Below are positions 110 through 59,880 of a stretch of 64,000 nucleotides of DNA, one piece after another. Each line of letters starts with the position of its first letter. Position 1 is the first letter of the stretch. The stretch is from Nemertoderma westbladi (Eukaryota; Animalia; Xenacoelomorpha). The notes under the pieces were generated by a model. The model saw only the letters and a program-made list of their open reading frames with translations, made no database searches and had not been told where the DNA came from. The stretch is taken from NCBI GenBank assembly GCA_032718475.1, contig JAUCBJ010002273.1:1-64000 (forward strand). The letters are read 5' to 3'. Both the position numbers and the translations under genes were made by a program.

Positions 110-3100
110 TAACCATAACCTTAAAAACAGTGAATCTACCACATCATGGTAACCACGCTGAGGTTTTGAAGAGTCCCATAGCACAGTAGTATTTTGACAG
201 GCTCAAGATACCGCGACACCAGGTAGGTTATAGAAATGTGTCTATATTGATTGCAGCGGAACAACTAATCGCGCACCAAATATGGGAAACAAGACCAGCT
301 GAGTCAAATGTGAATGGGCCACGCGCCCATAGGTCTATACTGGGTTGGTATACACACATACCTATCGCATATGAGTTTCCAAGTGGTGATAAGCCGAACG
401 ATGGATGTGATGATTCGCAAACTATACCACAGATATCACCTAATTCGTGCAATTCTGTAGAACAACCAGACATAGACGATTTCAGAAGAACCTTCATCGA
501 TCATTACAGTGACTTCAGTGAATCGGAGGAGGAGTTGTGTCCTGATAATGTTAGACTGTCAGAACTGCTCTATAACGATAGAACTGACAGTGAACCCGAG
601 GACTACTGTAATCAGACCCGTGGGTCTGGTTCAGTAGCTCACTCGACGTCTTTAAGTAAAGTCTTGAAATATACCAACATAGTGGAAGGTCAGGTAGCGA
701 AATATCGAGACCTCAATGTTTTTCAATTAAGCCAAGAAGAGTTGCAAAAGGAACTGATTCACCAAGAACTCGTGATGGGAGCTAAGACCATAGAATGGTT
801 AGACAAAGACGCAATGGAACCTGGAGGATATGACGTGACCATGTCTGCGGACGAGAAGAGATCAATAGAGATGATGGAGGACACTATACGCCTATTACCA
901 AGTGGACATTTTGAGGTCGGAATGTTGTGGCGTCAACAATAAATACAGCCTAGCTTTAAAACGATTGACTGGTGTACTGTAAGGGCGTGGCTGTTAATAA
1001 ATCAAGATATAAGGGAGAAATATTGCACTCAGATGAATAATTATCTGACCAAAGGATTCGCCGGAAGAGTATAGAACCCAGACATTGAGACCGACCAGAA
1101 TTATCATCTCCCACATCATTATGTAACCCACCCAGATAAACCTAATAAGGTTCACTTAGTCAATGATTGCGCTGCAGTCTATAAGGGCATGTCCCTAAAC
1201 TCCGAATTGATGGACGGTCCCAATCTCAATAACTATTTAATCGGGATCCTATTACGCTTCAGACAGTGCCGATTATGTTTCATCAAGTGAGAGCCTGCAA
1301 AGCAGATGAAGACAGCCTCAGGTTTCTCTGGTATGAGAACGAAGACTTATCAGGACCAGTGGTCACGTATCAGATGTACATTCGGATATTCGGTGCCCGC
1401 GACAGCCCGAACAGCATGTGTTTCATTCTAAAGAAAACCGCGATGGCCCAAATTGGGAACTATCCAGTGGACGTCATTGAGTCGATCCTCAAGAACTTTT
1501 ACATGGACGACAGATTGGTATCAAGGGACACAGTAGAAGAGGCGATACAAGTGGCCCACGATCTACAGAACTGTTTAGCAATGGGAGGGTTTCCTCTTAC
1601 GAAGTTTACTACCAATTCGGAGGCTTTACTAGAGTCCTTCCCGGTGAAAGATCGTGGGAGCGGAGATATCGAGCTAGGTGTGGAACCCATTCCCATAGCG
1701 CGAGTATTAGGACTTGGATGGAACCCAAATACTGATAAATTCCAGGTAAGGGTAAGATTTAAACCCAGACACAAGACATTGACTAAGAGAGTTTGCTTAT
1801 CGACCATGAGCAGGCACTTTGACCCAATGAACTTCATAAGTCCAGTGATATTGCAAGCAAGGATTTGCAAGAGGCAAATATGGTTATCGAAACTGGATTG
1901 GGACGAGCCAATATCCCCAATACATGTGAATCAGTGGAGAGAATGGGAGGCCGAATTGCATTTACTGAAGGACATAGATGTACCCGATCCTACTTTCCAA
2001 ACTAATTGGTATTTCCACCTGATTTGGAATTACACATTTTCAGTGACTCAAGCGACATGTAGACTGTTGAATCAATATAAATTCGAGATGGCTTTTGTTA
2101 CTTCTAGGTCGAAGACAATGCCACTCAAATATATGACCGTCCCTCGCGCAGAGTTACAGGCAACGGTAGTATCTGCAGAGGTAAGTAAACAGATCAAGGA
2201 GGAATTAGACACTACTTTGACATTATTTTATTGGATGGACGCATCTTTTGTGCTAGTTTCTATTGCAGCCGACAATATCGTGCTAAAGACGTTTGTGGCA
2301 AACAGGCGCGCTCAGATAGTCGATTTTTCGACGAAGGAGCAATGGAGACATTATCCAGTAGTATTAAAGTGGAATTAGTGGAAATAAAAGTTAACAAACT
2401 CTCCAAATCTAAATCGAAAGCCAGACAAGAGTCATTGGAGCGGCCTGAAGCGTCTTTGGAGCGGCCAGAAGCCAGAAGAGTCATTAGAAGGACCCATAGA
2501 CTTGTTGGACCAAGAGACAACAAGGTCTGGAAGCCACCCCTACGGATTGCGCACGGAACGCAAGGGTCAAAGTTGGTAAGTGACTGACAAGAAACGACCA
2601 TAACAGTGGAGCCTTCGGTTTACAACACTGCGGAGTTGGATTCGAAGATTCCATCACCATGGTCACAATTGTCACCATTACTAGAGTCATATAGTATTTA
2701 TGACAAATTGATAGAATCGTCAGCCTTTTTGCTGTCAATCTGTAAAAGAACCGCTTGGTTGAGCCGTTTTGTTTCATTCTGTTATTTGAAATTTACAAAA
2801 CAATTAGGGAAACAAACGAGTACTAATAATCATGTAATTCGGAAGTTAAAGCAACCTTTGACAGAAGGTGAGATCGATCAAGCTGAATTAAAACTTCTAA
2901 GACATTATCAAGTGTATGCCTTTCAAAAAGAATTTAGTCTATCAGTAAAGGCGTTCTTCTCCGATAAAGGTACTAACTTTGTCGAAGGAGATAATGAGCT
3001 TAATGCAGCTCACAGGATCGCACAAAATAAATAAATCTCTGCAGCACTTTTGCCCCACAGAGAATAGAGTGGAATTTCAACACTCCAGAGAGTCCTTGGA

Positions 3101-3646
3101 GAGGTGGAAGTTGGGAGCGCCTTGTTCGCTCCATAAAACAGGCTATAGCCAAGACAATATATAGCCATAGCTATGTTACCAGATGGTGTTACCAAGTCAT
3201 CTGCTTATGCAAAATCCAGCATTTCTTTTATTAGCTTCAGAGCCTGTCGATAGCGAGCTATATAGTCGAAAGAGTTGGAAGGTAACTCAACTATTAGGAT
3301 ATACCTTCTGTGAATATTGGTGGAACTATTATCTTCCCACAATATCCACCAGATCGAAGTGGTACAAAACTGTTCGTAGTCTCCAGAGGGGGGATTATGT
3401 ATTAATAACAGAACCGGTTACAAAGCAAAAATATTGGGAAACTGGTGTAATCCTACACGTACACCCGGACGTACAGGATGTAGTACCGTTACAGTGAAAG
3501 TTAAATGCAAGTGTCCAAACAAGGAAAAGTGTAAAACCAAGGGTTTACACACCTTGGACAGACCACTGCAAGATTACGTGTTATTAGAAGAAACACGCAT
3601 TGAGACAGGAGACTATAACTTGTCTTCTTCCTCAAAACAAAATTAG
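110..3646 (+). mobile_element. Degenerate BEL/Pao LTR retrotransposon pol (protease C-terminus, RT, RNase H, partial integrase) with stops, frameshifts and deletions
   Basis: BEL-typical motifs in successive broken ORFs: VSILIAAE..AHRSILGW, GHFEVGMLW, MFHQV..LRFLW, FGARDSP, FYMDD, RVLGLGW, FDPMNFISP, TVPRAELQA, FVANRR, SDKGTNF, YLPTISTRSKW, LDRPL..LLEE. No LTR found at either end. Confidence 0.9.
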
Positions 3647-4166: not shown

Positions 4167-5597
4167 AAGGGGAAAAGCCACCACCAATTTGGACAAAAGG
4201 TCAACTAAAGCCTCTCCCCAAGAAAGGAGACCTCGGTATACCAACAAACTATCGTGGGATCTGTCTGCTTGTGGTAGCTGCTAAAATATACAATAAAATG
4301 ATTCTATATAGGATTAGGCCTCACATAGAGAAACTACTGCGTAAGAGCCAAAACGGATTTCGACCAAGTAGATCAACAATAGCTCAGATACTTGCACTAC
4401 GGAGACTGATTGAATGAATTAAGTCAAAGAATCTCCCCGCTGTCATGACTTTTGTGGACTTCAAGAAGGCATTCGACTCCATCCATAGAGGCAAAATGCT
4501 TGAAATCCTAAGAGCTTATGGAATACCAGAAGTTATCGTTGCTGGCATTGGATTGTTATATTGTGACACAGAAGCACAGGTACTCTCACCAGATAGTGAA
4601 ACTGAGTTTTTCTCAATCCTGGCTGGCGTACTGCAAGGTGACACATTAGCACCATTACTATTTGTAATTGTACTGGATTACACAATGATGATGGCCACAA
4701 AGGGTGAAGATCTGGGATTCACACTTCAAGAACGCAGAAGTAGTAGATATTAAATTAAATTAAAGGAAGGATAGGAAGTAGATATATAAGGATATTAAAG
4801 GAAGTAGATATCCGGCAACTACAGTCACAGACACCGACTTTGCGGATAACATCGCCCTGCTCTCTAATACGCTAGCAGATGCACAGCTTCTACTAAATGA
4901 AGTGGAGAGGGCTGCTAAGGAGGTTGAATTGCATATAAATGCTACAAAGACCGAATTCATGACTTTTAATGTTGACGGAAACTTGACAACCATTGATAAT
5001 AATCAACTAAGGAAGGTTGACGACTTCCAGTACCTAGGATCATGGATAGAGAGTAGCAAAAAGGACATAGAAGTTAGGAAAGCAAAGGCTTGGGTAGCTC
5101 TATCAAAAAATGGATACCATCTGGAAATCATATCTCCCCAGGCACTTGAAGACTAAGTTCTTTCGAGCCACAGTGGAAAGTGTATTTTTATACGGGGGTG
5201 AGACCTGGACACTGACTAAATCACTTGGACAACGAATTGATGGTTGCTACACAAGACTACTAAGGGCAGCCCTAAACATCAGCTGGAGACAACACATGAC
5301 AAATGCCGAGCTTTATGGTACAACACCACCTGTATCAACCACCCTCCGTGAACGCAGATTAAGATTCAGTGGGCACTGCTGTCGAAGTAAAGACGTGGTC
5401 ATGCCAGATCTACTTTTCTGGCAACCAACTCATGGAAAGCGTAGTCGTGGACGACCGGCCATAACATATATAGATCAACTTGAAAGGGATACTGAACTTG
5501 GAAGAAACGAAATTGCGACAACTATGGAGAATCGGGAAACCTGGAAGGATCTCATTTCCACTGTCCGAGTTCGCTCAACTTAGTAGTAGTAGTAGTA
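4167..5597 (+). mobile_element. 5'-truncated RTE-clade LINE (reverse transcriptase, pseudogenised)
   Basis: PKKGDL..NYRGI, QNGFR, FVDFKKAFDSI, GVLQGDTLAP, DFADN (YADD equivalent), FQYLGS, RRLRFSGHC, GRP. Stop at 5583 lies within a (TAG)5 3' tail typical of RTE. Confidence 0.92.
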
Positions 5598-6020
5598 TAC
5601 ATGTATAAGACCGTGGGATCCCAACAGGAGTATGGAGAGTGAGAGCAAAAGGTGTTGAGTATTAGAGGAGCATGGGAGGGGAGGTATGAGAGTTTGGTGG
5701 AAAGTGAAGAGTGCGAGATCCATGTGTGGGGGGGGGAGCAGTGTGGAGGATGAGTCCTATGGGACTAGTGAGAGAGGAGAAAATTGTGTGAGGAGAAAGA
5801 GCGATCGTCTAAATAGAGACCCCAGATGCCTTGGTACAGCTTAGCTCGCAGAATGGACCAAGGATGGGTAGTGAAAATAGACCCAGAGGGGCCAGTCTGG
5901 AAAGCTGGCCACAAGAAAAAAATTCCACCCCACATCCAATGCTAGATTGGATTCCAGCGGAATTGGGGCGCACTAAAGGTTGATGCTATCTTCTCACCGG
6001 GAAGATAGCATGGGGGGGAG

Positions 6021-6606
6021 TGTTAGCGGATCCAATTTGTTGTACCACCCAGCGGAAAAAGGGCGAAGTGGCGATTTACCTATTATGTTCGGCTATGTGA
6101 TATTAGCAATATATTATCACATGCGGACACACCTGGCAATACACATTGCCAGCCTGAGGGAGAGATGCCAGCTCATCTCAGGGCAGAAGCTAGCATATTG
6201 GCCCAGGAAAGATAGTTCAGCCAATGGTGGGGCGAATTACCATCACTTAAGCGCGCATTCATTGGCTAGGCCAAACTAGCTAGGAGTTTACTGTGTGTAA
6301 TTATAATATAACCGTTAGTAACCGTTAACCTTTAGTTGGCTATGTAGATGTAGAAGTGTGTAAGTCACACGGTTTTTAACCGTCGTCGAATGACCGTGCT
6401 ATTATTGTAATCTGATTGTGCTATATTAATAATCTGATATTACGAACAACTGCGACTTTAAAACTCAGTTATTCAATCGGCCTCCGGCTTTATCAGAACT
6501 GAAACAGCCTTTCAGTAGCAAAGCGGACGCGACTTCGGCGACGCTATTTCCCAAGACTTAAACACACACACTGGTCGGGATCTTCACCAACTCAGATCCC
6601 GTCACA
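6021..6606 (+). mobile_element. 3' LTR of a separate LTR retrotransposon, preceded by its polypurine tract
   Basis: PPT GGGGGGGAG at 6012-6020, followed directly by TGTTAGCGGATC...GATCCCGTCACA (TG...CA with imperfect terminal inverted repeat). 5597-6011 is probably internal 3' sequence. Confidence 0.6.
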
Positions 6607-7581
6607 AAATTATTTCGTATTTTTATATTCGATTCGATAAGCAGCCTTAAAACGCAATAATATTTAGTTAAATAATTAGCCTCAAAATACGTTTTATATG
6701 TAGTTCTTTTGTTATTATTTGTTCCTGTGATTTGAGATGGGAAATGGGCGACCTAGCCATATTCCATTTCAACAAGTGAACTGCAGGTTCGTCTTATATT
6801 CATTTAATTTTATACAGTGAGTAGCTTTAATTACGTATATTTTATAATAAAACCATAGTGAATTAATTTACGGTGGCAATAATCTATAAATCAAATATAT
6901 GAATTTGCCTTTATATAATATCCATTAAATCTACTAAACAACTGTGCTAATTTCGTCTATGTTTCTATATTAATAAATATTTTTGTGCTAAATTTACCTT
7001 TAAATTGCGGCTTTTAATAATTGCCAAATTAATTTAGGGCGATTATGCGTTTCTGCTCGCTGGTTGGCCGAGAGCCCAGCTGGGAGAACCCTGGATCTGG
7101 CCGATCATGTGAGAAGAATAGATATTGCGTCATTCTTGTTAGTTTTGTGTTAGCCATCTTGAATTTGTATAATTTGCACTTCCGTTTTGAATGTAAATCT
7201 GGCCTTTCTGCTAAAAATGTGACTTTGAAATGATTACTGTGTGGTCTGATACTTGATTTTAATTTTCTGATTGTTAATTATAATCACTGATGTAATGAAT
7301 CTCGACTAATTCTTTGTTTCTTCGAGACTGTCAGACTGTTTGATGTTTTGTTACGCCGTTGCGGTAACAGCCCGCTTTAGCATGCAGGGCTAAAGGTAGG
7401 CGTAGTGGGCGCACTGTTCAGCGGCGACGGAGAGAGTTGGAGGATCCAATTTACGGCAGTACCGGCAGGGCAGGTGACTGCGGGTCGGGCTGAATGAAGT
7501 CTAGGACCGGGGACCGGTCATCATTAAGGCTATGAGGGCAAAGCGACCCATTTTTTGTCTCTCAATTTTTTAACTAGTTAC

Positions 7582-8152
7582 TGTACGCGCTTTTATAGAC
7601 CTTCAGCAGTTTAACCTGCCGAAATTTATATGTCTTTATTGATAATCTGCCTTTTTTAAGATAATAAGATTTAATACAAAACAAACCAAAAACATTAGCC
7701 GAAGCCAGTCCATGCGCGTCCAAATGACCCGTTTATAACACCGGGAGACTGGATTCGTGGGCTTAAATTTATTTGCGGTCAAGCCTACTGTATTATTCGA
7801 TTGATTACTAATATATAATCTCTGACAAATATTATTCACTTTCGGGAAATATTAGCAGTTCCTTTTAGGACGCGGCGCTCTACCTATGTAAACAGAGTTA
7901 TGACTGATACTACACACAACGATATGGCTTAAATTTCAAGCATAGGGCGCATTCTTTAGGAATGCTTTATTATCAGATCCAATCACTTTACAATCACGCA
8001 CGCTACCGGTAACGCACAACACTGCTCACTGATATGCCGACAGTTACTGACTTTGATCAGGTATAAAGAGATATGCACTGGACTCAGGTAGTGTCTGTCA
8101 AACAACATTAGATTCACTACAAACACAATAATAAAGTCGCAATTGTTGTACA
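7582..8152 (-). mobile_element. 3' LTR of exonuclease-carrying BEL/Pao element, copy A
   Basis: TGT...ACA termini. Purine tract AGAGAGAAGGGTTA (minus strand, 8153-8166) abuts the LTR start. Homology to 57201-57754 begins exactly at the TGT. Confidence 0.8.
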
Positions 8153-8898
8153 TAACCCTTCTCTCTAACCTGTAGTGTATCAAGGATATTGGGAAAATGC
8201 GGGTTGATTATTGATATTCTTCAACTAATAACATCCAATTATACTGATACAAAATTACAAACAGTAAAAGCAGTATGACGGTAGGTTAAGATATAATTAG
8301 ATTGCATTGAATCATAAGTTATAAATTGGATAGCTTTGATAATAGCTATGCTTTCTATAATTTAGCCTACTAATGTTCTTATAAAAAGGCAGAAAACATT
8401 TCGCTATATCAAAACGGTCTTAAAACACTGATAATAAAGTCTAAAAATCCTAACAAAATCATAACCAAAGTCCCGTGACTTTAGCTCTCTTATTTTCCAA
8501 GAATCCCGTTCAACACATGTAATCAGCAGTGAGACAGGATAATTTCAGTTCAGTAGCTCGGGATTGGTCGAAATCAGAACTAACTCAACGCAGGGCTATG
8601 GGTAACTGGGGCAACCTTCCCAAGCCGGCTGGCCAATCGAACAGCTCAGATCCCTCCTAAAGGATTCCAACGCCTTGGAGGGGGGAACTGGTTAGCAAAG
8701 AAAACAAATCAGTCATATCCCAGAAAAACCTTTACAGTAGGTTTCAGAGTATTTTAGCGTATGGGGGAAAAACTGGGTTGCGGGGCGAAGGGCCAGTTAC
8801 ATCCCACAGAAGCTTTTACACCGCTCCCAGAAAATGAGATTGAAGTCTATAAAATATACAAAATCGCAGTTTCTAATATACATAAATACTCTAAACAG

Positions 8899-11800
8899 TT
8901 AGTCTTTCTTGCGCGGACGGCGTTTACGCAGTTTTTTAAAGCTAGCCAGAGTCCTTTTCTCTTTGGGGCGAGCCACTTTACAAGGAGGGCTATAACTCCT
9001 GGGTGAAGGGTGCAATATAATTGCATCAGAGGGTGCAGGATTGTTGTCGGTATATCCGCCAGTTGAGGTTCCGGGTAGGTTGTCATCAACATCGGGGGAC
9101 TGAGGTCTAACGGCCTTTAGGGCTCGTTTTAGGACGGCTGCTCTCACAGGTCCTCTGCGAGTGGTCTGAACAGAAGCCGTGGGTGGACCGTAGGCTGTCA
9201 GAAACTGTCTTGGTTTAACAGTTCTCTCCAACTCGCGTTCGCGGGCTCGATATTCGTAAGGCCTTCGATATACTTCTTGTAACTCAGGATGCGAGTTAAC
9301 GAATAATTCTCCATAGTCCGGATCGCGTCGGATAAAGTTGATTAAATAATAGGAATGAATATCATTGGGGTTAACTCTCCTAAGGAATTTGCGCACAAAC
9401 TTAGTCGAAATACATTCTCCGACGCGCTTTAATAGCTCGTAACTCGGGATGCACGCTTTCTGTTCGACAGAAGCGAATAAATACGGATGGAACGCATAGA
9501 CTCCTTCGTAAGCGCGTCCAGGGTAGTAGCGATGACGTGAGTTACAATGTAAATCAGCGTTCGCTTCCCAAGCTCGAATGTAACGGAGTACAATCATTTC
9601 GTCTACACTCTCCAAATCTTTATTGAAGGGACAATCAAAGCTGGCGTGTCCTTTCAGCTGACAATGGTGGCATTGCATCATGAACTGGGGGCAGACAGCA
9701 AAAATGTGCGAATCATTGAGTCGACAATAAGCGCAGTAAATTTCCATCGAAGGCTGTTCGTGGAAATAGGAACATAGGATATTCGTATCCATAGGCGTAA
9801 TATGGTCTCTAGATGCGCATAACCGACAACGCTGACGATCAACATAGTTGGCATGGCGATAATCGTACGCAGTGAGACACTGTGGACCTTGATACCATTC
9901 GATAATATAATCGTTGTCGCTGTTCCGGGGCGTAGTAGGTTGAATCTCCTCAGATTCCATACACATAGGCTCGTCTTCCCAGTGTGTAGCTGCGGCGAGC
10001 GTAGTTGACTCTTCCGGTGGACCTACTGTTTGAATCTCAACGACAGAATAACCTGTGGTGAGTCGAGGTCTTTGTATAACAGAAGAATGTAAATTCTCGA
10101 TGCAAATATCCTTAAATAGGGCAAATCCGGCACTATCCAACTTCTCAGCAGCTGAGCTTCTCAGGCTGAGCTTGGTCAACGCGCGATCTTTAAATTGGCT
10201 ATCCACGTTGTGGAACGGGGTTAGAAATCGCCGGAAACATTCAAAGCGTATGAATTTGTTATGTTCATCTAGCTTAGCGAGTTTGGTTCCAAGTATTAAC
10301 GGATGGGCGCGTATAGTACGACTGCACACGTCGGCTAGCCAACCGGAAAGTGCGGTATTTTCCAAGATCGTGTAGATAGCTAAAGAGGGACGGAGTGGAA
10401 CACTCATGAAGCTATACACGGCGCCAGGTGCGGTCAACGGTCCGTCAAAATATAATCGGGAATAATGGTCTCCATATACTTGTTGATAATTAAGGGAATT
10501 TCCAACCTTGAAATTCCATCCGTATTCCTGAAAGGCAATATGTCCGATGGAAGTTCGTTGAACTTTAGTAATGTCGTTAGACGTATTAGCGTACATGGTA
10601 CGGAAGAAACCTCGGCCTTCTGCCCAAGGTGCAATTAACTGCGTGTCTACAAATGGATATGGTGTATCCTCCATATTTCGAAAATCATTTTGTAGATCTC
10701 CATAAACGGCGGAACCGATTTTAAGGATCTTTTCATTGAACAACATCTCGAGCACGGGTTGGGGTAGCATCGATCCATCGATACCCATGGCCGGTTTACG
10801 TTCGGTATCAATGACGTAACGCTGCGCGAGTACGAATTGACCATGCCGAAGATTCTTTTGTGTTTCCGTGAGAGTTTCAAAAGAATAATCAACCACGTCG
10901 GAACACGCTCGAGTAAACACGTGGGTAGAACCGGCTAATCCGCGTATATGGATCATGCGCGTGGTTCCTAATTCTCCGACTGGAACGCTGCCTTCATTAT
11001 CGTAGGTAACTACTCCATACATCTCGATGATATTAAGGGTCTCATTCCACTCTTTTGTAGCGTTCTCGAGGGTCATCCCTACCGGGTGCCATAAGGTAGC
11101 ACATTGGTTAGCGTCAGGGAGATCACTATACTTCAAGGATTGAGTGTTACACGTCTCCATATTTCCGTGTCTTTTTATTCTCTCCTCCTCGAATAATACG
11201 TCGAGATTCCAATGGACTAATCGAGTTTTAATGAATCCATCGAGGTTATAAGGAGGTATCGTATCATTCTCAATTCTAGAAATGTTATATGGTTTTCTAA
11301 AAGAGTTTACCTTTACTAACTGATCCAAATGTTTCTGTAATTGTTCGAGTTCGACAATGTCCAGAGGATTTATTAACGGTAGAAACTTCAAGCTATGCAT
11401 AGGATCTTCTGGTTTTATCATATAATATTGAGTCAGATTAACGTAATAAGGGTGATCTTTAATCCCATAAAACGAGTTCGTTAAAGGGCGAGCGCGTATG
11501 TTGACATCGTGTACCATACGACGGACAAGATCCGCTCGATTGTCCGGAGGTTCTACGAGTATACCGTCAACGCGAGCAGCTTCGATCGGCGGGCGCTGTA
11601 ACATGGGGGCGTCGGCGATAAGCTGGTGTGATCCTGTACTAATATCGACCGGTTGGGGTTGTACTTTCGCGAAGAGTTTATCTCCGAAGTTGGGAATCAT
11701 AGAGGGATGACGGATAGTTTTAGAGTATAAGTCCGTCATAAGGATTTGGGTTTCGGGTTGAGCTAAAGCGGCTTCTTCCCTCTCGTCCATTTCCGTATGT

Positions 11801-13152
11801 TTCTTTTCGAGTTGGTTCTCTTCCGCTCGTTGTCTCATACGCTCGTCTAGAAACTCCTGGAGAGAGTACGTGCGTCCCAGCTCTATGTCGTCCTCGAGGT
11901 TTTGTATCTCTCGATCGAACTGTGGTAAGGCTAAATCCTTCACCGCTTGAACTTGTTGCTGTAATCTACGTTTTTCGAGGTAATCCTGTGTTCCCTTCCC
12001 GATTTTCTGTCGAATAGCGTCTAAAGCATTTCTAATAACGCTCTCTTCGACTTCCGTGGCAGGTTGAATCGGGGTTAATCCGGGGCGGTTGTAGGGATTA
12101 AATGGCGATATAAGATGCCCGCGTCCTAATCCGGCTAGGTAGGATGGTCTAATGTCTAAAGAGCCCACTACCGGAGTACCACCTATTAACTGTTCAGGTA
12201 ACACCAAGTCTTTGAACAGAGAATATAGTTCGGGAGGATCGGTGATACTATTAGGATCAAGAGTTTGAGGTCTAACGGGGGAATGAGGAGGCCTAACCGA
12301 GTATTCCGGAACTCTGATCAGGGGTTTATTGAGTGATCGTTTGAGGCGGGCGACCGTGGGCGACACATCGAATAGGTTTCGCTCGAAACTCCCGTACGTA
12401 CAACGCGTAAAACTATGTTTAGCGCAACGTCTCCGCGGATGTTTATGTCTTTCCGTTTGTTGGTTGGGTCTAGGGCATTCGTCACAATAATACCATAGAC
12501 GTAAGTCCTGTAGAGGGAATGCGGGTGATCGTTCTCCCGTTTTGCAATACTCCTCCATTTGTGCAAAGCTATCGGGAACCACGGGTAGCGGACGATCGGC
12601 CGTGAGATACATCATGGTGAAGTATAGTCGTTGGAGTTCTATCATGGGATCATGATGTATACCTTGAGGATATCGAGTCTCTAGGTTTTGTTGACTGGCA
12701 ATATTGAGATAAGTTTCTCTCAAAAATTCCAGGTAGTCGTTGAAGTTGATACGCTTATCAGGTTCCTCAACGTTTTCTCGGTCGAGCCGGTTACGAATAG
12801 AGTTCTCGTGGTCTATTCTTGGTTTATCGTTACGACTCCGCTGAGCGTGGTATTTAAACAAAACCATTTCTCTTTCGGTGTCTACATCGTCCGTATCATG
12901 TAGGTCGATCGGATGGCCGGTGGTTAGAAAGTCCATATACGTACCATTACGGTGCGTGTAGCGAGCGGTGAATTTTCTATAGTCCAATTCACGCGTGAGT
13001 TGTTCTTGGGACATCGGCGGTTCGATGTAACGACCATCTTCCTCGGCAGCAGTGGGACCGGGTTCACCACTCACCAAGCTATCCACAAACGCCTGCAAAG
13101 GTACATTATATCGCTCCCTGACACCAAGATCATCTTCTATCAATTCCGTCAT
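8899..13152 (-). CDS. Retrotransposon accessory protein (~1417 aa): N-terminal Cys/His cluster, coiled coil, DEDDy/DnaQ-like 3'-5' exonuclease domain, CCHC zinc knuckles, basic C-terminus
   Basis: Uninterrupted ORF. The ATG at 13152 (MTELIEDDLG) is conserved in copy B, whereas the track's TTG start is not. ExoI VVTYDNEG, LPQPVLEMLFNEKILKIGSAVYGD (ExoII), FVDTQLIA, SIGHIAFQEYG, PLRPSLAIYTILE (ExoIII). Knuckles CRLCASRDH, CAYC..H..C and CHHCQLKGHASFDC. Tail KKLRKRRPRKKD. Confidence 0.8.
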   Translation of the reverse strand: MTELIEDDLGVRERYNVPLQAFVDSLVSGEPGPTAAEEDGRYIEPPMSQEQLTRELDYRKFTARYTHRNGTYMDFLTTGHPIDLHDTDDVDTEREMVLFKYHAQRSRNDKPRIDHENSIRNRLDRENVEEPDKRINFNDYLEFLRETYLNIASQQNLETRYPQGIHHDPMIELQRLYFTMMYLTADRPLPVVPDSFAQMEEYCKTGERSPAFPLQDLRLWYYCDECPRPNQQTERHKHPRRRCAKHSFTRCTYGSFERNLFDVSPTVARLKRSLNKPLIRVPEYSVRPPHSPVRPQTLDPNSITDPPELYSLFKDLVLPEQLIGGTPVVGSLDIRPSYLAGLGRGHLISPFNPYNRPGLTPIQPATEVEESVIRNALDAIRQKIGKGTQDYLEKRRLQQQVQAVKDLALPQFDREIQNLEDDIELGRTYSLQEFLDERMRQRAEENQLEKKHTEMDEREEAALAQPETQILMTDLYSKTIRHPSMIPNFGDKLFAKVQPQPVDISTGSHQLIADAPMLQRPPIEAARVDGILVEPPDNRADLVRRMVHDVNIRARPLTNSFYGIKDHPYYVNLTQYYMIKPEDPMHSLKFLPLINPLDIVELEQLQKHLDQLVKVNSFRKPYNISRIENDTIPPYNLDGFIKTRLVHWNLDVLFEEERIKRHGNMETCNTQSLKYSDLPDANQCATLWHPVGMTLENATKEWNETLNIIEMYGVVTYDNEGSVPVGELGTTRMIHIRGLAGSTHVFTRACSDVVDYSFETLTETQKNLRHGQFVLAQRYVIDTERKPAMGIDGSMLPQPVLEMLFNEKILKIGSAVYGDLQNDFRNMEDTPYPFVDTQLIAPWAEGRGFFRTMYANTSNDITKVQRTSIGHIAFQEYGWNFKVGNSLNYQQVYGDHYSRLYFDGPLTAPGAVYSFMSVPLRPSLAIYTILENTALSGWLADVCSRTIRAHPLILGTKLAKLDEHNKFIRFECFRRFLTPFHNVDSQFKDRALTKLSLRSSAAEKLDSAGFALFKDICIENLHSSVIQRPRLTTGYSVVEIQTVGPPEESTTLAAATHWEDEPMCMESEEIQPTTPRNSDNDYIIEWYQGPQCLTAYDYRHANYVDRQRCRLCASRDHITPMDTNILCSYFHEQPSMEIYCAYCRLNDSHIFAVCPQFMMQCHHCQLKGHASFDCPFNKDLESVDEMIVLRYIRAWEANADLHCNSRHRYYPGRAYEGVYAFHPYLFASVEQKACIPSYELLKRVGECISTKFVRKFLRRVNPNDIHSYYLINFIRRDPDYGELFVNSHPELQEVYRRPYEYRARERELERTVKPRQFLTAYGPPTASVQTTRRGPVRAAVLKRALKAVRPQSPDVDDNLPGTSTGGYTDNNPAPSDAIILHPSPRSYSPPCKVARPKEKRTLASFKKLRKRRPRKKD

Positions 13153-13195
13153 ATTTGCTATCGAATCCACCAATATTATAACAAGTTATATGTTT

Positions 13196-13370
13196 TAGGT
13201 CAGCGGGCGTCGCTGCCTACTAATCGCGGCCCCCCGGACAGTGGGATTCTCAGCGCCGATGTACCGCTGTCGCGGTGTTTACGCCAACGTTGTGGCAACA
13301 GCACGACAACGATAACCGACACAAGTCCCTCCACTGTCCGTCCCAAAGGCTTGTTATCACTTGAGGTTCT
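13196..13370 (-). promoter_or_regulatory. Conserved structured RNA element upstream of the accessory ORF (IRES candidate), copy A
   Basis: 10-bp helix 13235-13244/13331-13340 encloses nested helices. 3' hairpin UAGGCAGCG-ACGCC-CGCUGACCUA. Near-identical to 59881-60052 with pairing-preserving changes. Confidence 0.55.
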
Positions 13371-13879
13371 TGCTATGGGAGAGTTGGGTTATCTTACAAT
13401 TGCGACTAGCTACTGTAAACACACCTTAGCAGCAACATTCACCTACAAACGCATAAATTCCACACAACAGCTACCAACTACCATCCTACAGGCCATTTGT
13501 CCGTTAGTCAATGCCTTCCAGAATGTCACGTTGTTGTTATTGTGTATCCTTGGATACCAACCGTGTGCTATACAATCACTATGCTGAGTAACGGTACAAG
13601 TTTTCTATTGTTCTTTTAACTCGTTTTTTAATTCTAGCGTGGGTGTTGCTATGGTGACATTATGTAAAGCTAGCGGTAGAATTAGGGTAGTTCTCATGCA
13701 TACAGATCTGGGATGTTGTTTGATAGTAAGTCTTTAGTTTGTCCATATCCTCTTTACACATGATTTTAGAAATTTTATCGGCTATTGACTATATGTTGGA
13801 GATTCTCGCACTCTAGCGACTGGGGGGGGGAACTGGCCAACAAGGCAAACGAATCAGTTATCCCACAAAAGCTTTTACA

Positions 13880-15500
13880 GTAGCGCCCACCCCTACCCTT
13901 GGGCAGCAGATAGGAGTAGCGCCCACCCCTACCCTTGGGCAGCAGATAGGAGTAGCGCCCACCCCCACCTTCGGGTAGCAGATAGGAGTAGCGCCCACCC
14001 CTACCTTCGGGTAGCAGATAGGAGTAGCGCCCACCCCTACCTTCGGGTAGCAGATAGGAGTATCGCCCACCCCTACCCTTGGGCAGCAGATAGGAGTAGC
14101 GCCCACCCCTACCTTCGGGCAGCAGATAGTAGTAGCGCCCACCCCTACCTTCGGGTAGCAGATAGGAGTAACGCCCACCCCTACCCTTGGGCAGCAGATA
14201 GGAGTAGCGCCCACCCCTACCCTTGGGTAGCAGATAGGAGTAGCTCCCACCCCTACCCTTGGGTAGCAGATAGGAGTAGCGCCCACCCCTACCCTTGGGC
14301 AGCAGATAGGAGTAGCGCCCACCCCTATCCTTGGGCAGCAGATAGGAGTAGCGCCCACCCCTACCCAGCTACCCTTGGGCAGCAGATAGGAGTAGCGCCC
14401 ACCCCTACCTTCGGGTAGCAGATAGGAGTAGCGCCCACCCCTACCTTCGGGTAGCAGATAGGAGTAGCGCCCACCCCTACCTTCGGGTAGCAGATAGGAG
14501 TATCGCCCACTCCTACCCTTGGGCAGCAGATAGGAGTAGCGCCCACCCCTACCTTCGGGCAGCAGATAGGAGTAGCGCCCACCCCTACCTTCGGGTAGCA
14601 GATAGGAGTAGCGCCCACCCCTACCTTCGGGTAGCAGATAGGAGTAGCGCCCACCCCTACCCTTGGGCAGCAGATAGGAGTAGCGCCCACCCCTACCCTT
14701 GGGCAGCAGATAGGAGTAGCGCCCACCCCTACCCTTGGGCAGCAGATAGGAGTAGCGTCCACCCCTACCCTTGGGCAGCAGATAGGAGTAGCGCCCACCC
14801 CTACCTTCGGGCAGCAGATAGGAGTAGCGCCCACCCCTACCTTCGGGTAGCAGATAGGAGTATCGCCACCCCTACCTTCGGGTAGCAGATAGGAGTAGCG
14901 CCCACCCCTACCTTCGGGTAGCAGATAGGAGTAGCGCCCACCCCTACCTTCGGGTAGCAGATAGGAGTATCGCCCACCCCTACCCTTGGGCAGCAGATAG
15001 GAGTAGCGCCCACCCCTACCTTCGGGTAGCAGATAGGAATATCGCCCACCCCTACATTCGGGTAGCAGATAGGAGTAGCGCCCACCCCTACCTTCGGGTA
15101 ACAGATAGGAGTATCACCCACCCCTACCTTCGGGTAGCAGATAGGAGTAGCTCCCACCCCTATCTTCGGGTAGCAGATAGGAGTAGCGCCCACCCCTACC
15201 TTCGGGTAGCAGATAGGAGTAGCGCCCACCCCTACCTTCGGGTAGCATATAGGAATATCGCCCACCCCTACATTCGGGTAGCAGATAGGAGTAGCGCCCA
15301 CCCCTACCCTTGGGTAGCAGATAGGAGTAGCGCCCACCCCTACCCTTGGGTAGCAGATAGGAGTAGCGCCCACCCCTACCTTCGGGTAGCAGATAGGAGT
15401 AGCGCCCACCCCTACCCTTGGGCAGCAGATAGGAGTAGCTCCCACCCCTACCCTTGGGTAGCAGATAGGAGTAGCGCCCACCCCTACCTTAGGGTAGCAG
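13880..15500. repeat. 36-bp GC-rich tandem array (~45 units)
   Basis: Unit GTAGCGCCCACCCCTACC(TTCG/CTTG)GG(T/C)AGCAGATAGGA. The 12-aa periodic ORFs are a by-product of the repeat. Confidence 0.97.
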
Positions 15501-17131
15501 CTATCGAAAGAATAGCCTTCGGGTCGCCTCCGGCTTCGTTCGACTGTTTCCTTTTTTATTGCTTTTCTACCAAAAACACTCCTGATCATTTTTAGCGAAA
15601 TTTATTCGTAAACGTTTTATTGGCAATGGTATTTTATTTCATGCGGGGAAATTCTGTAATTTAATTTAAATTGAAATGTATGAAGAAATGGTCACGCATA
15701 TTAACATACAATAATACATAAAGGTAAAGGTATTAAAAATAGCCTTTATTCGTGAAATTCGTCATTCTGAAATAAATAATATGTTTAATTGAAAAATTGT
15801 AAATATCCCGCGATTTTAGATAACAAAATTTTTCTTTGTTCGACCATGACCTACTATAAATACTGTAAGACCATGAAAGCTGCAATCTGCCTACTAAATT
15901 TAGTAGGCACACGTTTTTAAAATCATTTATTTTATTTTTGAAGGATTTTATAATAAAAGTCTTCTAGAACATTTTTTTATGATTCTTTTCAATAGTAAGT
16001 ATTATAATTTTGAAACAACTTATTTTAATAGCTATTTTTATGTATTATTGGTAAATGCCAGTTCCACTTCGTTGGTGCGTACCTACGCCATCTCCTGGAA
16101 TATTGTGTCTTAAATTCAGCGCCTTGGCCACCAATTATTCTACAAATCTTAATGCGTCAGAATATTTATTTTCGCTTTCAATCCTTAACTACAAGCGTTT
16201 GAAAGGTGTTTTATTGAGTCTATTTAATTACTATCTATCCTGGAGACAGGGGGGAAAACTGGACGCAAAACCCGCCTTGGCGAATTAATATCCCGTCTCA
16301 ATGTTAAATTCTCGATTTAGGAAAAGGAACAGGTTACAGTGGCACGTTATTTTAACCAAAACAATAAACTAAACACAATAGAACAGGTTACAGTTTTATT
16401 TTTGAGAGTAATCAGCTGTTATTTGCGTCCAATTTCCCCTGGAGAGGGATGAATTTTTTATTGCGTCCAGTTTCCCCTCCTATCTGCTATTAGGACACAG
16501 TTTTTATTACATTATCGTGTTCTACACTGTGTTCTATACGTGTTCTACAGTAGATTGTTTAGCATTTAAATAGCCTCGAGACGATGCTAAAACTTGCCAC
16601 TTCCGATTGCTAATATTCCACTCAATTTCATTAACATTCAGAGGGGGGTGGGTTGCACTGAATTAAGACAAAAAAATGTCTTGTATTTTTTATATAATTT
16701 TTTGTTATTTATGCTACTGTAGCAACCATAGCTAGTGTTTTTTTTGGGAGCTAGTGTTTTTTTAAACATTGTGTTTTTACTAGCAAATAGTGAAGAAAGA
16801 CAAAAGCAAATAAATAGTTGATATTGTTCAATCTTGTGGAATGTTTATTGTTTATAATGTTTTCAATAATGATGATGAGTACCGGTAAACTACAGTTCTA
16901 TAATTTAGCTATTATTTACATGACGCGACTCAGTTTGAATTCTTTTACTGAAGATTCTCTCACTGCCTGTGAGGCTTTGCATCGATTATTTACAAATATG
17001 TTTACGAGAGGGTGAAAAAGTAATTCTTGTAATTAGTTCGGTATGGGAAGGACAACCTTAGCCCCCCCCCCCAAGGCGACCTTTACGGTCGCCTTGGTCT
17101 TACGGTGGTTACGGTCTTAAAGGTCGCCTTG

Positions 17132-23585: not shown

Positions 23586-23724
23586 AGTAAAGAACGTTTA
23601 GCCATTATCAACCATCCCCCTTAAAAATTTATAAAACGGAAGTTATAATCTGTATATGCCCTCCCATGCCATGTACCGTATTGGTACCGTATCATTATGC
23701 ACATTGCACATCGATGTTTTATCA

Positions 23725-25012
23725 GGTACAGTCCAGGGGAGTGTTTTAGGTCCTGTTCTTTTTTTACTATTTATAAACGACTTACCTGAATTGCTTTCAC
23801 CTATTGATGTTAAACTTTTTGCTGATGATGTTAAACTCTACGCACCCACCACCGAATGTGACTCTTTAGCCAACGCCCTCAAATTGTTAGAGACATGGGC
23901 AAATGAGTGGCAGCTAGACGTTGCAGCTCATAAATGCACTGTTATACATGTTGGCGCATCGAACAGTAATTTTAATTATATTTTAAACGGTAATGTAATT
24001 AAGTGCGAAGATTTCTGCAAAGACCTTGGTATTATTGTTAGTGCTGATTTGAAGTTTAATAATTATTGTAAGCAGCAAGTTGCTAAAGCTTATAGGATAA
24101 TAAATATGATATTTCGTAACATTAAATCGTGTAATAAATCGGCACTTTTAACGGCCTACAAGTCTATTGTTAGACCGGTTTTAGAGTACTGTACCCCTGT
24201 TTGGTCGCCCTTCACTAAGTATGGTATAAATTTAGTCGAACGAGTTCAACACTATTTTACACGCAGATTGTATCGTCGGTGCAAATTAACTTATGTTTCA
24301 TATTGTGACCGTCTAACCTGCCTGTCTCTACAACCCTTGGAGGTTAGGAGAATTATTTTCGACTTGAAAATGGTGTACCGTATTTTTCACGGCCTTGTTG
24401 ACCTTACGTTTAGTAACTACTTTTCACGTGCGCCAGTAAGAGGGCTACGTGGACACAGCTATAAACTTCATATTCCGTATTGCAGACTACAACTTTGTAA
24501 GAACTCTTTTAACTACCGCACTGTTCCATTCTGGAATTCTTTATCGCAAGATATTGTTGATGCTAAAAACCTACGAATTTTTTCTCGTAAATTATTAACG
24601 TTCGATTTCAAGTCACACTGTTCGGTCGACCATTGGTGCAAATAGCCGTTTAACTTTTTACTTATTTATATTATTTTTTAAACTATTTTTTTTTAAGGTT
24701 TTGTATCCGTTGTGTGATTGTGTTTGTTATTTTTATTTCACTCCTACCTATTTTATTAAGTAATAACCAATGAAATTATTTTTATCACAATATTTATCAC
24801 TATACTATACTGTATGTACACATATATTTACACTTAATTTCTCTTCTTTTAAATCATTTAAATCGCCCCTTTAAGTGCCTCGAGCCTGGGCGGCGATCTC
24901 CCTCGAAAAATTGTCGATTACCTATATTTAGTATTTCTTAATTCTACTGTATTGGTTATACTATATTTTAATGTATGTTATCGTGTATTAAATAAATAAA
25001 TAAATAAATAAA
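23725..25012 (+). mobile_element. 5'-truncated CR1-group LINE (RT C-terminal half, 3' UTR, (AAAT)n tail)
   Basis: GTVQGSVLGPVLFLLFINDL, KLFADD, KDLGI, VRPVLEY..VWSP, LRGHSYKL. Open frame to 24645. (AAAT)n at ~24988-25012. Confidence 0.92.
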
Positions 25013-31551: not shown

Positions 31552-33075
31552 ATGGCATGTTTAGGAATACAACTCGTAATACTAATTGTAACTATTGTGA
31601 ACCTCAAAGGCGGAGAACCGTATATCATGAGGGATATGTTGAACTTGAAGAATAATCTTCTTACAGACTACTTTACAGAGATTAGACCGGTTAACAACCA
31701 ACACGACATTGTTTATGTTGATATGCAATTCCATATTGGAACAATTGTTGAGATCGATATTGTTGATTCTAGCATCTCTTTGACAACTTGGGTTAAATTC
31801 TCCTGGTTCGATGAAAATCTTTTTTGGGATCCGGCTGATTATGGTGGCATTTATGAACTCTCATTAAAACCACACGAGGTTTGGTCCCCTCATATAACCT
31901 TCTTGGGCGTAGTCCGACATTACCACGGAGACATTGTTGATTACATCACAGTTGATCACAGTGGACGGGTGGAATCCCATCATAGGTGGTCGCTCAAGGT
32001 TTCTCAAAACTTCACTGCAAAATATTTTCCATACGACATTCAAATGGTGAAGTTTATAATAGAATCGTGGACGTACAATGAGACGAAAGTCAAACTAAAT
32101 TGGGCCCAAAACATGATAGGTGCCGGAAATAACATAAAGTTTACCTCCAATGAGTGGCAATGGAAACAGGCGGTTGTAACTTCGACAAAATCTGCATATG
32201 TTTCAATTAACGGAGATGAGAATCCCACATTCTCTCAACTAGTATATGTTATGACGTTACATCGCAATCCTGATTTCTATTTTAAGACTATTATCTTTCC
32301 TTCTGTTGTTATCAGTACTATAATCCCTCTGCTGTTTGTTATACCAATTGAGAGCGGTAACAGAATCGGGCTCGCTAGTGGTCTATTTTTTTCGCAGATG
32401 GTCAACCTGGTGTTGGTGCAGGAATTTCTGCCACCGGCCTCCAAAGAAGAACCATTGCTATCTCAACTTTATTTCTTAAATGTAATAATCACCTTGATTT
32501 GCGTGACAGCGAGCATCGTCATAGAGCATATCCAAACCACAGTTGCAAAACATGTCGAGAAACAGGAAGAATATGCGAAAACAATAGACAATGGTTCACC
32601 CGAACCATCAGACGAAGAAAAGGCCAGTCAGAAAAATAACGAGAATAAAGGAAAAGACGCCATTAGAAACCGAAAAAAGTCGCAATTAAAAAGCCAAAAT
32701 AAAAAGGGAGGGAAATATAGAAAAAGGATAAATATAATTCGATACGCTGATCTGATAATGTTTATTATCTCAGCGATGTTTGTAATAGTTTCAAATAGTT
32801 GGACTTTGTATGTTTTGGAACCTCCAACTTCGGAAGCGTTGATCTCTGATCTTGCTGAAGAGATAGAGTCAAATGAAGCTGATCTGGGTAAATATGATGA
32901 CACTACGTCCTCCTATTATTATGATAACGGTGTGGGAGAAGGGTTGGTTACTACCCCAGGCGGATTCATTGTTTTCGACAACGGAGTTGAGGTTGGAAGA
33001 GACAACACCTTGCCTCTCTCATCTTACTCTATTGGGCTAATGGCGGCCGCGGTATATATTCGCGTAATTATATAA
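31552..33075 (+). CDS. Pentameric ligand-gated ion channel subunit, nicotinic receptor-like, Cys-less, intronless
   Basis: Signal peptide, RPV, W.DENL.WDPADYGGI, VWSPHI, YFPYDIQ, ESWTY, M1-M3, basic M3-M4 loop, M4. Confidence 0.93.
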   Translation: MACLGIQLVILIVTIVNLKGGEPYIMRDMLNLKNNLLTDYFTEIRPVNNQHDIVYVDMQFHIGTIVEIDIVDSSISLTTWVKFSWFDENLFWDPADYGGIYELSLKPHEVWSPHITFLGVVRHYHGDIVDYITVDHSGRVESHHRWSLKVSQNFTAKYFPYDIQMVKFIIESWTYNETKVKLNWAQNMIGAGNNIKFTSNEWQWKQAVVTSTKSAYVSINGDENPTFSQLVYVMTLHRNPDFYFKTIIFPSVVISTIIPLLFVIPIESGNRIGLASGLFFSQMVNLVLVQEFLPPASKEEPLLSQLYFLNVIITLICVTASIVIEHIQTTVAKHVEKQEEYAKTIDNGSPEPSDEEKASQKNNENKGKDAIRNRKKSQLKSQNKKGGKYRKRINIIRYADLIMFIISAMFVIVSNSWTLYVLEPPTSEALISDLAEEIESNEADLGKYDDTTSSYYYDNGVGEGLVTTPGGFIVFDNGVEVGRDNTLPLSSYSIGLMAAAVYIRVII

Positions 33076-37180: not shown

Positions 37181-37750
37181 CTAACGGGAACCGGTAGATA
37201 ACAACGCAAGTAAACCCGAAGAGGAAGCCACAGACAAGATGTAGTTAAAGTTGGGGTTGAACGATCGGAGAAGATAGAAGCTAAAGAGTATGATGAGGAA
37301 GATGTACAAGGTGTTGTTGTAGAAGATGGCGAAAGAAGTGGATTCGAACTCGGCAACTTCGTTCTTCTTCCAGAGGATTCGCTCGTCTTTCTCTTTCTTC
37401 GGCATCTTCTTGTCATCCGGAATCGATTTGAGCACCTCGCGAGCCACTGCATCCTCGCGTTTCTGCGCGAATTTGTGCTTGAGCACAAACTTGCTGTTCC
37501 TGTAGGCGAAACTCACCAGCCAGGTCGAGACTAAGGTCATGATGACCCATAGGATTCCGAATTCTAGCGGTTCCATTTGGTGGATTTTCCAGAACAGCCA
37601 CAACGGGATCGTGGAGACGATCAACGCGTTCACATAGAAGAATATCGACGATTTAAACGTCACATTGCGGGAGAAATCCTGCAATAATAGCTCCTCTTCT
37701 TTTGTAATTTTTTGTTGTTTGGTGGTTTTTGAAGCAGCCGTAACAGTCAT
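37181..37750 (-). CDS. SSR3: Translocon-associated protein subunit gamma (TRAP-gamma), intronless
   Basis: [70 protein letters not shown]. Confidence 0.97.
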
Positions 37751-50723: not shown

Positions 50724-51179
50724 GATGACATTTATGTCTTCCCAATTATTGATGATCGACAACCTTAAATAATCATGTGCCCTAAATCTTACACCCACTA
50801 ATTAATTAATGTAATAACTCAATAACTTGCAACCACAACATGTATTGGGCGAATGTCTCTTTTTTCCAGGCAGGTTATCGCAACTTCTACTAAAAGTGAG
50901 TTCTTACAGCATCAAAGGTAAATAAACGTGATATGAAATTAAAGTACTGTACATATGCTCCACCTCCAGCAAATACTAAAAAATAATATTTAAATAATTT
51001 ATTTATTTGGTACTCACCAAAGAAAAATATGACAAATATTATTTAATATATATATATTATTATATTTATTATTATATTATATTATTTTATTTTATTATAT
51101 ATTATTATATATAATATATTATTTAATTTTTGCGCAGCCACTAATGGGACATCTTTCCAATTTTTTTCCGACATAATTA

Positions 51180-57100: not shown

Positions 57101-57200
57101 AAGTCGGGGCCCCGAAATAATAAGTCGGGATCCCGAGATAATACGTCGGGATCCTGAGATAATAAGTGGGGATCCCGAGATAGTAACTCGGGATCCCGAG
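51180..57200. repeat. 21-bp tandem satellite (~285 units) with a palindromic BamHI core
   Basis: Unit GGGATCCCGAGATAATAAGTC and variants, core TCGGGATCCCGA. The first units are partly inverted. Confidence 0.98.
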
Positions 57201-57754
57201 TGTTCGCGCTTTTGAAGACCTTTAGCAGTTTAACCTGCCAAATTTTATATGTCTTTTAGTTAATTAAAACACCTTTAGCATACGACAATATTTTATGCTA
57301 ATACACAAAACATTAGCCGAAGTCAGCCCATGCGCGATCATTCACCCGATGGATCTACACCCGGGAGGCTGAATTCGGATGCTTAAATTTTATTATTGCA
57401 GTGTAAGGTTGCCGTGTAAACTTACTGTATTATTCGATAGATCGTTAATAATTAATTTCTGACAGATATTATTGGCTTTCGGGAAATATTAACAGTTCCT
57501 TTAGGACGTGGCGCTCTATCTATTTAAACAGAACTAGGACTTATACTAAACGCAACGATACTGCTTATGATTAAAGTATAAAGCGCATTCTTTAGGAAAT
57601 GCTTTGTTACCAATCACAATCATGCACACTATTCTGCCGACCGTCAGTAAATTTGATCACACATAAAGAGAGCAGCAATTGACTCATGTAGGGTCTGCTA
57701 AATAACATTAGATTCAATACACACCACATTAATATAAATCGCAATTGTTATATA
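57201..57754 (-). mobile_element. 3' LTR of copy B
   Basis: Starts TGTTCGCGCTTTT (copy A has TGTACGCGCTTTT). PPT-like AGAGAGACGGGCTA (minus) at 57755-57768. The inner terminal CA has mutated to TA. Confidence 0.75.
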
Positions 57755-58487
57755 TAGCCCGTCTCTCTAACCTGTAGTGTATCAAGAAAATTGGGAATTT
57801 TGGGTGATTTATCCGTATTCTCCAAAGAGCAATATTTCCATCAACAAATAGATACAATTAATAACTGACGGTAAATGACAGTACAAACAATATGATTAAT
57901 AGTGAGTTAATTAGATCAGACAAGTCGATTGAGTTAGATTAGTGAGTTAAGGTAACAGTTTATACTTTCGATAATTTAAGCAGTTTTACTAGAGTTCTTC
58001 CCAAAAAGCCGGTGTTATGGCGAAAAAATGGGAACACAACAACAGAATCATATAAAATCATGTGACTAGAATAACTATACGAGGATACCAACTACCCTTA
58101 TTCCACGAAGCCCCGTTCAACACAGAGGATGAGCATAGAGATAGGAAATTCAGTTCAGTAGCGCTGGGATAGGTCGAAATCAACGCCCACTCAAATTCTA
58201 TTGGCCGACACGGACAGCAGTGCAGAGGCAACCTCCCTAAGCTGGCTGGCCGATTAAACTGAGCCCAGATATCTCCATACAGCACATCAGCCAATAAGCT
58301 GGTAGCTTGCACTATTTTAGTTATAAATCCCTTTGAGAGTATTCTAGCGACTGGGGGGGAACTGGCCAGCAAAGGCAAACGTATCAGTTATCCCACAAAA
58401 GCTTTTACACCGCTCCCAGAAAATGGGATTTAAGTCTATAAAATATACAAAATCACAGTTTCTAAAATATAAAAATACTCTAAACAG

Positions 58488-59837: not shown

Positions 59838-59880
59838 ATCTGTTATCTGAGTTTATTAATATCAATATGAGTTAATATTT

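Follow-up and report, generated by a model that had tools for sequence, protein, structure and literature searches.

A third gene with a putative DEDDy-derived nuclease domain and zinc knuckles, probable cargo of a BEL/Pao retrotransposon in Nemertoderma westbladi

What is a gene of 1417 codons doing directly before the end of a retrotransposon, and how might its product serve the element? The question is raised by positions 1 to 64,000 of contig JAUCBJ010002273.1 from the xenacoelomorph Nemertoderma westbladi (assembly GCA_032718475.1), a 64,000-nucleotide (nt) window that was analyzed here together with public contigs and protein searches. Within it, an open reading frame (ORF) on the minus strand occupies the env position of an element with long terminal repeats (LTRs), and is referred to below as ORF3, the third ORF. 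The analysis makes it highly probable that ORF3 is element cargo, with a domain derived from DEDDy exonucleases followed by zinc knuckles.

ORF3 is a single uninterrupted, intronless open frame, and the computed chance of an open frame as long as this is ~1e-33. The parts of this copy (copy 1) are given below in positions of the window and in amino acids (aa) of the protein; some were defined by comparison with a second copy in the window (copy 2) and with two distant relatives, P0001 and P0003.

8899-13152, minus strand: ORF3, 1417 aa, in the env position, without a transmembrane segment (ORF list, hydropathy)
11086-13152, minus strand: N-terminal ~690 aa of ORF3, no assigned family, with an acidic start, a Pro-rich part, and a charged helical part
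10273-11085, minus strand: DEDDy-like 3'-5' exonuclease domain, aa ~690-960 (Atlas, profile, and motif comparison)
9631-9828, minus strand: three Cys/His zinc knuckles, aa 1109-1174 (motifs; ligands kept in copy 2)
9484-9591, minus strand: block of conserved sequence following the knuckles, aa ~1188-1223, common to P0001 and P0003
8902-8937, minus strand: basic Lys/Arg tail of ORF3 (motif)
8821-8831, minus strand: polypurine tract (PPT) immediately adjoining the LTR, with the same sequence in copies 1 and 2, starting 67 nt past ORF3
7582-8820, minus strand: 3' LTR of copy 1, 1239 nt, with TG..CA ends
13153-13811, minus strand: leader before ORF3, 659 nt
13235-13340, minus strand: predicted G-U-rich RNA hairpin of 43 pairs, located 82 nt ahead of the ORF3 start (folding against shuffles)
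13812-13879, minus strand: 68-nt LTR stub, joined with the leader through a short microhomology and adjoining a 36-nt satellite

The ORF with its PPT and LTR, the three knuckles, and the basic tail had all been pointed out in a preliminary description made from the sequence alone, and all were found. The tail, judged from its motif, may resemble a nuclear localization signal, as that description had it, or bind RNA. For the N-terminal ~690 aa, no Pfam family and no PDB match under E 0.9 was found, and this part is absent from both P0001 and P0003. Within it, a Cys/His cluster at aa 223-251 (12486-12400, minus strand) may be a further metal site and matches no family. ORF3 is not an env gene, because it lacks any transmembrane segment (hydropathy over 19 residues peaks at 1.15); the missing transmembrane anchor and signal peptide, together with the acidic N-terminus, rule out this identity. 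BEL/Pao elements with a third gene, such as Atlas, Cer13, and Tas, carry a fusion-protein env (PMC9094657; for this and all other articles cited by PMC number, statements refer to the accessible part of the text).

The link to BEL/Pao comes from copy 2. A BLAST comparison of positions 6000-16000 with the window located this copy at 60494-57201 on the same strand, where pol is followed by a 1.62-kb non-coding spacer, an ORF3 remnant, a PPT, and a 1209-nt LTR.

61458-64000, minus strand: 3' part of a BEL/Pao pol with RNase H region and integrase, open to the window end
59838-61457, minus strand: non-coding spacer between pol and ORF3, 1.62 kb, carrying a hairpin and a second PPT word
60023-59919, minus strand: the hairpin in the copy 2 spacer
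58488-59837, minus strand: copy 2 of ORF3, broken, lacking aa 121-1055, with frameshifts and one stop
57201-58409, minus strand: 3' LTR of copy 2, 1209 nt, TG..CA, with the PPT at 58420-58410, ending at a 21-nt satellite

The pol of copy 2 is of BEL/Pao (Belpaoviridae) type. It matches Peptidase_A17 (E 1.4e-26), DUF5641 (E 2.9e-20), and the integrase zinc domain (E 2.2e-7) in Pfam, all passing the cut-offs; its RNase H has the DAS motif, and its integrase reads D(61)D(49)E, which fits the extended DD(45-53)E spacing. The DAS motif is likewise found in the Sinbad/Saci-1 group of BEL/Pao elements, where Sinbad has D(62)D(49)E; unlike the present element, Sinbad has no third ORF reported in the accessible text (PMC554778). 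Because the second copy of ORF3 sits between this pol and a related LTR, ORF3 is, judging from gene order, cargo of a BEL/Pao element. The placement as cargo in the env position, proposed at the outset, is supported by what the copies share, namely leader, PPT, and a related LTR, and by the pol that precedes the ORF3 remnant in copy 2.

The preliminary description had seen the second copy as a homologue lying between an intact BEL/Pao pol and the same LTR. Strand, pol type, and LTR were confirmed, but the pol, open for 846 codons, runs to the window edge, so that gag, protease, reverse transcriptase, and the far end of copy 2 would lie beyond it, and the LTRs of the two copies are identical in 793 of 1021 aligned columns (78%), so that two subfamilies rather than one are present. 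A loss in copy 2 had been missed: only ORF3 residues 1-120 and 1056-1417 are retained, and the whole nuclease region is deleted. The lesions comprise a 2804-nt out-of-frame deletion, one stop, a 1-nt deletion, and a 99-nt deletion. As the 2804-nt deletion breaks the frame, the long, nuclease-bearing ORF3 is the older state.

Several smaller features accompany the two copies. The LTR of copy 1 starts with two related ~80-nt units (8820-8670, minus strand), perhaps a duplicated enhancer, as against a single unit in copy 2. The copy 2 spacer contains two 98-nt direct repeats that are 74% alike (60911-60652), and its second PPT word (60520-60513, minus strand), possibly a central polypurine tract, is kept in loose ends of other copies. 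Both copies adjoin satellite arrays, with 36-nt units at 13879-15500 and 21-nt units at 51168-57200; the latter array contains long spurious ORFs on both strands.

Copy 1 itself looks like a rearranged remnant, formed by a deletion between two elements or by an assembly join. Neither gag nor pol was found upstream of its leader in the window, no target-site duplication is present (flanks alike at 3/5 positions), and the 68-nt stub resembles the copy 2 LTR (97%) more than the 3' LTR of copy 1 (77%). The junction lies ~20 nt downstream of the place equivalent to the second PPT word. Since copy 2 is without the nuclease and copy 1 without gag and pol, the link between pol and nuclease is indirect. 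The mismatched stub, the absence of a target-site duplication and of pol, and the fact that no contig from four runs bridges pol and nuclease would fit a nuclease region that is a passenger: a fragment of a host or foreign gene that a single sublineage picked up, or the product of an assembly join, outside the working set of the element. We regard this as very unlikely, given the uninterrupted intronless frame of 1417 codons, the out-of-frame deletion junction in copy 2, the several diverged subfamilies that carry the nuclease region, and the fact that P0001 and P0003 combine the same nuclease with the knuckles still found in copy 2.

Those subfamilies emerged from public data. The stretch was found in six of nine runs, from four studies, and the contig comparison took in four of the nine. 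Contigs near-identical to copy 1, as well as contigs diverged from it by 12-17%, cover the part that copy 2 has lost, and copy 2 differs from copy 1 to the same extent; one of the diverged contigs spans ExoI with 54 differences in 443 nt and no gap. Loose contig ends at 13815-13817 in two runs, compared by eye, continue like the copy 2 spacer, towards pol. In run X1, one contig lacks 9927-12790, near the deletion of copy 2, and has a depth of 2918, compared with 300-780 for the longest near-identical pieces of the nuclease region; this hints that nuclease-deleted forms have spread, although depth is no copy number. A high copy number of the element is hinted at by run X2, with a depth of thousands on the element and tens on the flank, which is not a count.

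The shared ORF3 codons are under strong purifying selection. Of 203 nucleotide differences between the copies in 448 shared codons, 133 fall at third positions, in agreement with the first impression from the sequence. The purifying selection suggested at that time was recovered in a dN/dS estimate of 0.11 (dN 0.07, dS 0.63; bootstrap 0.078-0.156), similar in the N- and C-terminal parts, but none of the 448 codons lies in the nuclease domain. For that domain the evidence for selection is indirect, because copy 2 lacks it. Among the 40 of 1317 differences listed from the contig comparison, 27 lie in ORF3 and 13 in the part deleted from copy 2; ten of these 13 are synonymous, and two fall within the nuclease domain.

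The nuclease domain carries ExoI at 11004-10990, an ExoII region at 10767-10639, and an ExoIII candidate at 10398-10360. The DEDDy motif order read by the preliminary description was thus retrieved with its ExoI and ExoII acids, but the proposed ExoIII, YTILE, proved to be one of two registers. The ExoI acids D718 and E720 and the ExoII acid D819 are invariant across ORF3, P0001, P0003, and RNase D, and D819 aligns with an Asp that is conserved in 80 of 80 RNase D sequences. The ExoIII motif occurs twice, 14 residues apart, as Y913/S917 (register 1) and Y927/E931 (register 2), and the latter closely matches P0001. Because the canonical ExoIII Asp is lacking, the domain is filed as DEDDy-like rather than as a canonical member, and from its sequence it appears to be a DEDDy domain or a dead derivative of one. 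The proteins EXD1, EXD2, Mut-7/Nibbler, and WRN exonuclease (PF01612 family) show the same ExoI-ExoII-ExoIII order; ORF3 differs from them in scoring below every Pfam cut-off, in its non-canonical ExoIII, in ~45 extra residues between ExoI and ExoII, and in being element-borne.

Profile and feature comparisons agree with this placement. In the ESM Atlas, residues 660-1000 matched PF01612 clusters of large DNA viruses at 0.93, with 160 of 256 features in common; PF01612 is found on 28-51% of the cluster members, and the ten named top matches all belong to one family or clan. A profile of 80 RNase D sequences scored higher on ORF3 (at 798-843) than on any of 1000 shuffles, and hhalign of ORF3 against the RNase D profile gave 89.6% (E 1.9e-6), compared with at most 0.7% for 32 controls. 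A pattern scan of metagenome proteins with the family alignment kept one of 597 matches, a bacterial RNase D. The PF01612 cut-off was not reached by ORF3 (no match) or by P0001 (E 0.2; 11.9 bits against 23.6). Predicted folds were poor, with a predicted local distance difference test score (pLDDT) of 29.9 from the single sequence and 31.0 from a three-row alignment, and neither resolves the fold or the ExoIII register; the latter model, too poor to inform, gave no Foldseek match at E 0.001. The Atlas and profile matches point to a DnaQ/RNase H-like fold.

A phmmer search with ORF3 residues 601-1300 against 1.84 billion representatives returned five matches, of which P0001 (E 1.5e-7; 648 aa) and P0003 (E 2.1e-5; 575 aa), both from ENA assemblies, are real. 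The other three (P0002, P0004, and P0005), rich in repeats, were set aside because they match acidic stretches by chance. P0001 and P0003 keep the ORF3 order of nuclease, acidic linker, three knuckles, and following block, at 22-30% identity. At ExoIII, one has a Glu, like register 2, and the other the canonical Asp. The longest contigs of the six members of their clusters measure 3.4-11.5 kb, four of them 9.4-11.5 kb, which is suggestive of the size of an element. The family profile also matches retroviral nucleocapsid knuckles (E 0.002-0.003), which knuckles 2 and 3 resemble, and the knuckle ligands are conserved in copy 2; an origin of the knuckles from a BEL gag was not supported, as no gag family matched. 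No relatives were detected in viral contigs (five scans) or phage records, nor in prokaryote genomes searched with the family alignment. Exact look-ups of six proteins of the window gave no match, and word-index protein searches returned none among 3497 candidates, the query alone among 7995, and none among 4901.

A second conserved feature precedes the gene. The two copies have leaders with 84% identity, compared with ~57% at synonymous sites, and one of its ten 120-nt windows folds far better than shuffled sequences in both copies. The hairpin found there has z-scores of -4.6 and -6.5 on the sense strand of the two copies and of -1.5 and -4.0 on the opposite strand; all 43 pairs are kept between the copies, four through one-sided and none through two-sided changes, although two sequences give little power. 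Around the hairpin, no Rfam family reached the gathering score in either copy. Because pol ends 1.62 kb upstream and the copy 1 leader contains nine ATGs, expression of ORF3 from its own transcript or by internal initiation is likely, and the hairpin may take part in the latter.

The hairpin also bears on the possibility that ORF3 is a dead nuclease retained as an RNA-binding regulator, comparable to EXD1 or Maelstrom. Such a protein would bind its own leader hairpin and regulate how element RNA is exported, spliced, or translated, much as Rev or CERV (PMC10309623) does, or would act as a decoy for host small-RNA factors. The conserved, strand-biased hairpin just before the start codon, the basic tail and knuckles, and an ExoIII that may fall on the Ser register would all suit this role, and inactive DEDD derivatives retain RNA binding (PMC5408684). 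On the other side, the ExoI and ExoII acids are invariant among sequences so little alike, both relatives have an acid at ExoIII, with register 2 closely matching P0001, and the hairpin is known from two sequences without a two-sided change and nothing connects it to the protein. On balance, a dead regulator seems rather unlikely.

The reading we put forward, as a tentative one with somewhat less than an even chance, is that the ORF3 product is a trans-acting trimmer of RNA 3' ends that blunts host small-RNA silencing of the element. In this reading, ORF3 ranks as the third gene in a family of BEL/Pao LTR retrotransposons, placed between pol and the 3' LTR and presumably made from its own transcript. 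The knuckles would grip single-stranded RNA and pass its 3' end to the DEDDy-like site, with Glu931 as the putative fourth acid, and small-RNA precursors or cut transcript ends are the candidate targets; nuclease-deleted copies would ride on intact ones. A trans-acting factor fits because the gene is under purifying selection yet has been lost from copies with an open pol. The model for the knuckles is the RND enzyme of Trypanosoma brucei (TbRND), in which the RNA is bound behind its 3' end by CCHC fingers that full cleavage requires, and in which, as in ORF3, the 3'-5' Exo domain precedes the CCHC array; TbRND is a host mitochondrial enzyme with four fingers after a short linker, whereas the three knuckles of ORF3 follow a ~150-aa acidic linker in a mobile element (PMC7797062). 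The first Atlas match for P0001 was a euglenozoan cluster with PF01612 and zf-CCHC (0.86), which is taken as a lead only.

A number of observations weigh against this proposal. The canonical ExoIII Y-x3-D is replaced by Y-x3-E (927/931) or Y-x3-S (913/917), global alignment to RNase D and to P0003 prefers register 1, and Ser917 would give a dead enzyme. The RNase D match spans 47 columns only and is not fully independent, because its seed was fished with a pattern from the same segment. Pfam found a weak knuckle match and no exonuclease family in ORF3, the best PDB exonuclease match of the family profile was a weak one to EXD2 over ExoII (E 0.74), and TbRND was absent among 17 and 23 PDB matches with E up to 10. 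No single sequence in the window or the compared contigs joins pol to the nuclease region. Mature piRNAs and siRNAs bear a 2'-O-methyl end that resists such trimmers, and both the substrate and the effect on silencing are purely our inference. Finally, the DEDDy ORF of bdelloid rotifers shows no clear link with copy number (PMC5408684).

Alternatively, an active enzyme could serve replication by working on the nucleic acids of the element itself, trimming the end of primer or genomic RNA or polishing cDNA ends during reverse transcription. The similarity of knuckles 2 and 3 to retroviral nucleocapsid would suit such a helper, DEDDy enzymes also accept single-stranded DNA as a substrate, and the bdelloid ORFs were initially proposed to process the 3' ends of element RNA (PMC5408684); the evidence for cargo and for selection fits equally. 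However, packaging would not be automatic for a protein separate from gag-pol, and the domain seems dispensable in cis, as the nuclease-less copy 2 keeps an open pol and a single contig of one run shows a similar deletion with high depth. To our knowledge, most BEL/Pao elements replicate without such a nuclease. We hold a replication helper to be rather unlikely, to the same degree as the dead regulator. In its fullest form, the trimmer proposal would unite ORF3, P0001, and P0003 as a new family of retroelement-borne proteins with an exonuclease and a triple knuckle that act in trans on host piRNA and siRNA precursors, with the last catalytic Asp replaced by Glu and with the leader hairpin as their own control site, that is, as a retrotransposon-encoded enzymatic suppressor of small-RNA silencing; taken as a whole, this is speculative and rather unlikely.

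Nuclease cargo of this kind has precedents. As the preliminary description had stated, DEDDy ORFs occur in rotifer retroelements: third ORFs are known from the bdelloid LTR elements Juno and Vesta and from Athena elements, with a DEED motif and a function given as untested in the accessible text (PMC5408684, PMC6431247). Like ORF3, the Juno/Vesta and Athena/Terminon ORFs encode an RNase D-like exonuclease, and in Juno and Vesta the gene likewise occupies the env position of an LTR element and lacks a transmembrane part. The DEED motif of the bdelloid ORFs is not found in ORF3, which has D-E-D-E or D-E-D-S (PMC5408684). Compared by description only, ORF3 further differs in its three CCHC-type knuckles, its 690-aa N-terminal part, and its basic tail. 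The bdelloid carriers are rotifer elements outside BEL/Pao, those of the Athena/Terminon type being Penelope-like and Juno and Vesta Gypsy-like. In the open literature searched, which did not cover subscription papers, no title or opening pointed to an exonuclease gene in a BEL/Pao element. Among nematode retroelements, which the preliminary description also named, Cer elements may possess an exonuclease domain, and the present case would then be less novel. Cargo of this kind has its counterpart in a different family of rotifer elements, to which the present case would add the BEL/Pao host and the knuckle array.

The remainder of the window is animal DNA, with TRAP-gamma, a ligand-gated ion channel, a protein kinase, a weak Mastermind-like match, LINE (long interspersed nuclear element) fragments, and satellites. 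TRAP-gamma (37181-37750, minus strand) and the ion channel (31552-33075, plus strand) are each a single open frame without introns. An ORF of 726 aa at 41764-43944 (minus strand) has a match to Mastermind MamL-1 at its start (E 0.0015, below the cut-off). A decayed BEL/Pao pol of another family lies at 1275-3464 (plus strand) and is 28-34% identical to the pol at the window end over the longer matches. The end fragment of a LINE-type ORF2 at 23656-24645 (plus strand) matches RVT_1, and we take 5110-5583 (plus strand) to be another such fragment.

Taken together, these results would extend DEDDy cargo, previously described once, in bdelloid rotifers and with no assay reported in the accessible text, to BEL/Pao elements. 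The knuckle array, which resembles the RNA-gripping array of TbRND, hints at how ORF3 works. Nuclease-bearing and nuclease-deleted subfamilies coexist in one host, with strong purifying selection on ORF3. The family thereby makes it testable whether LTR elements may deploy a nuclease of their own against small-RNA silencing or use it as a helper for reverse transcription.

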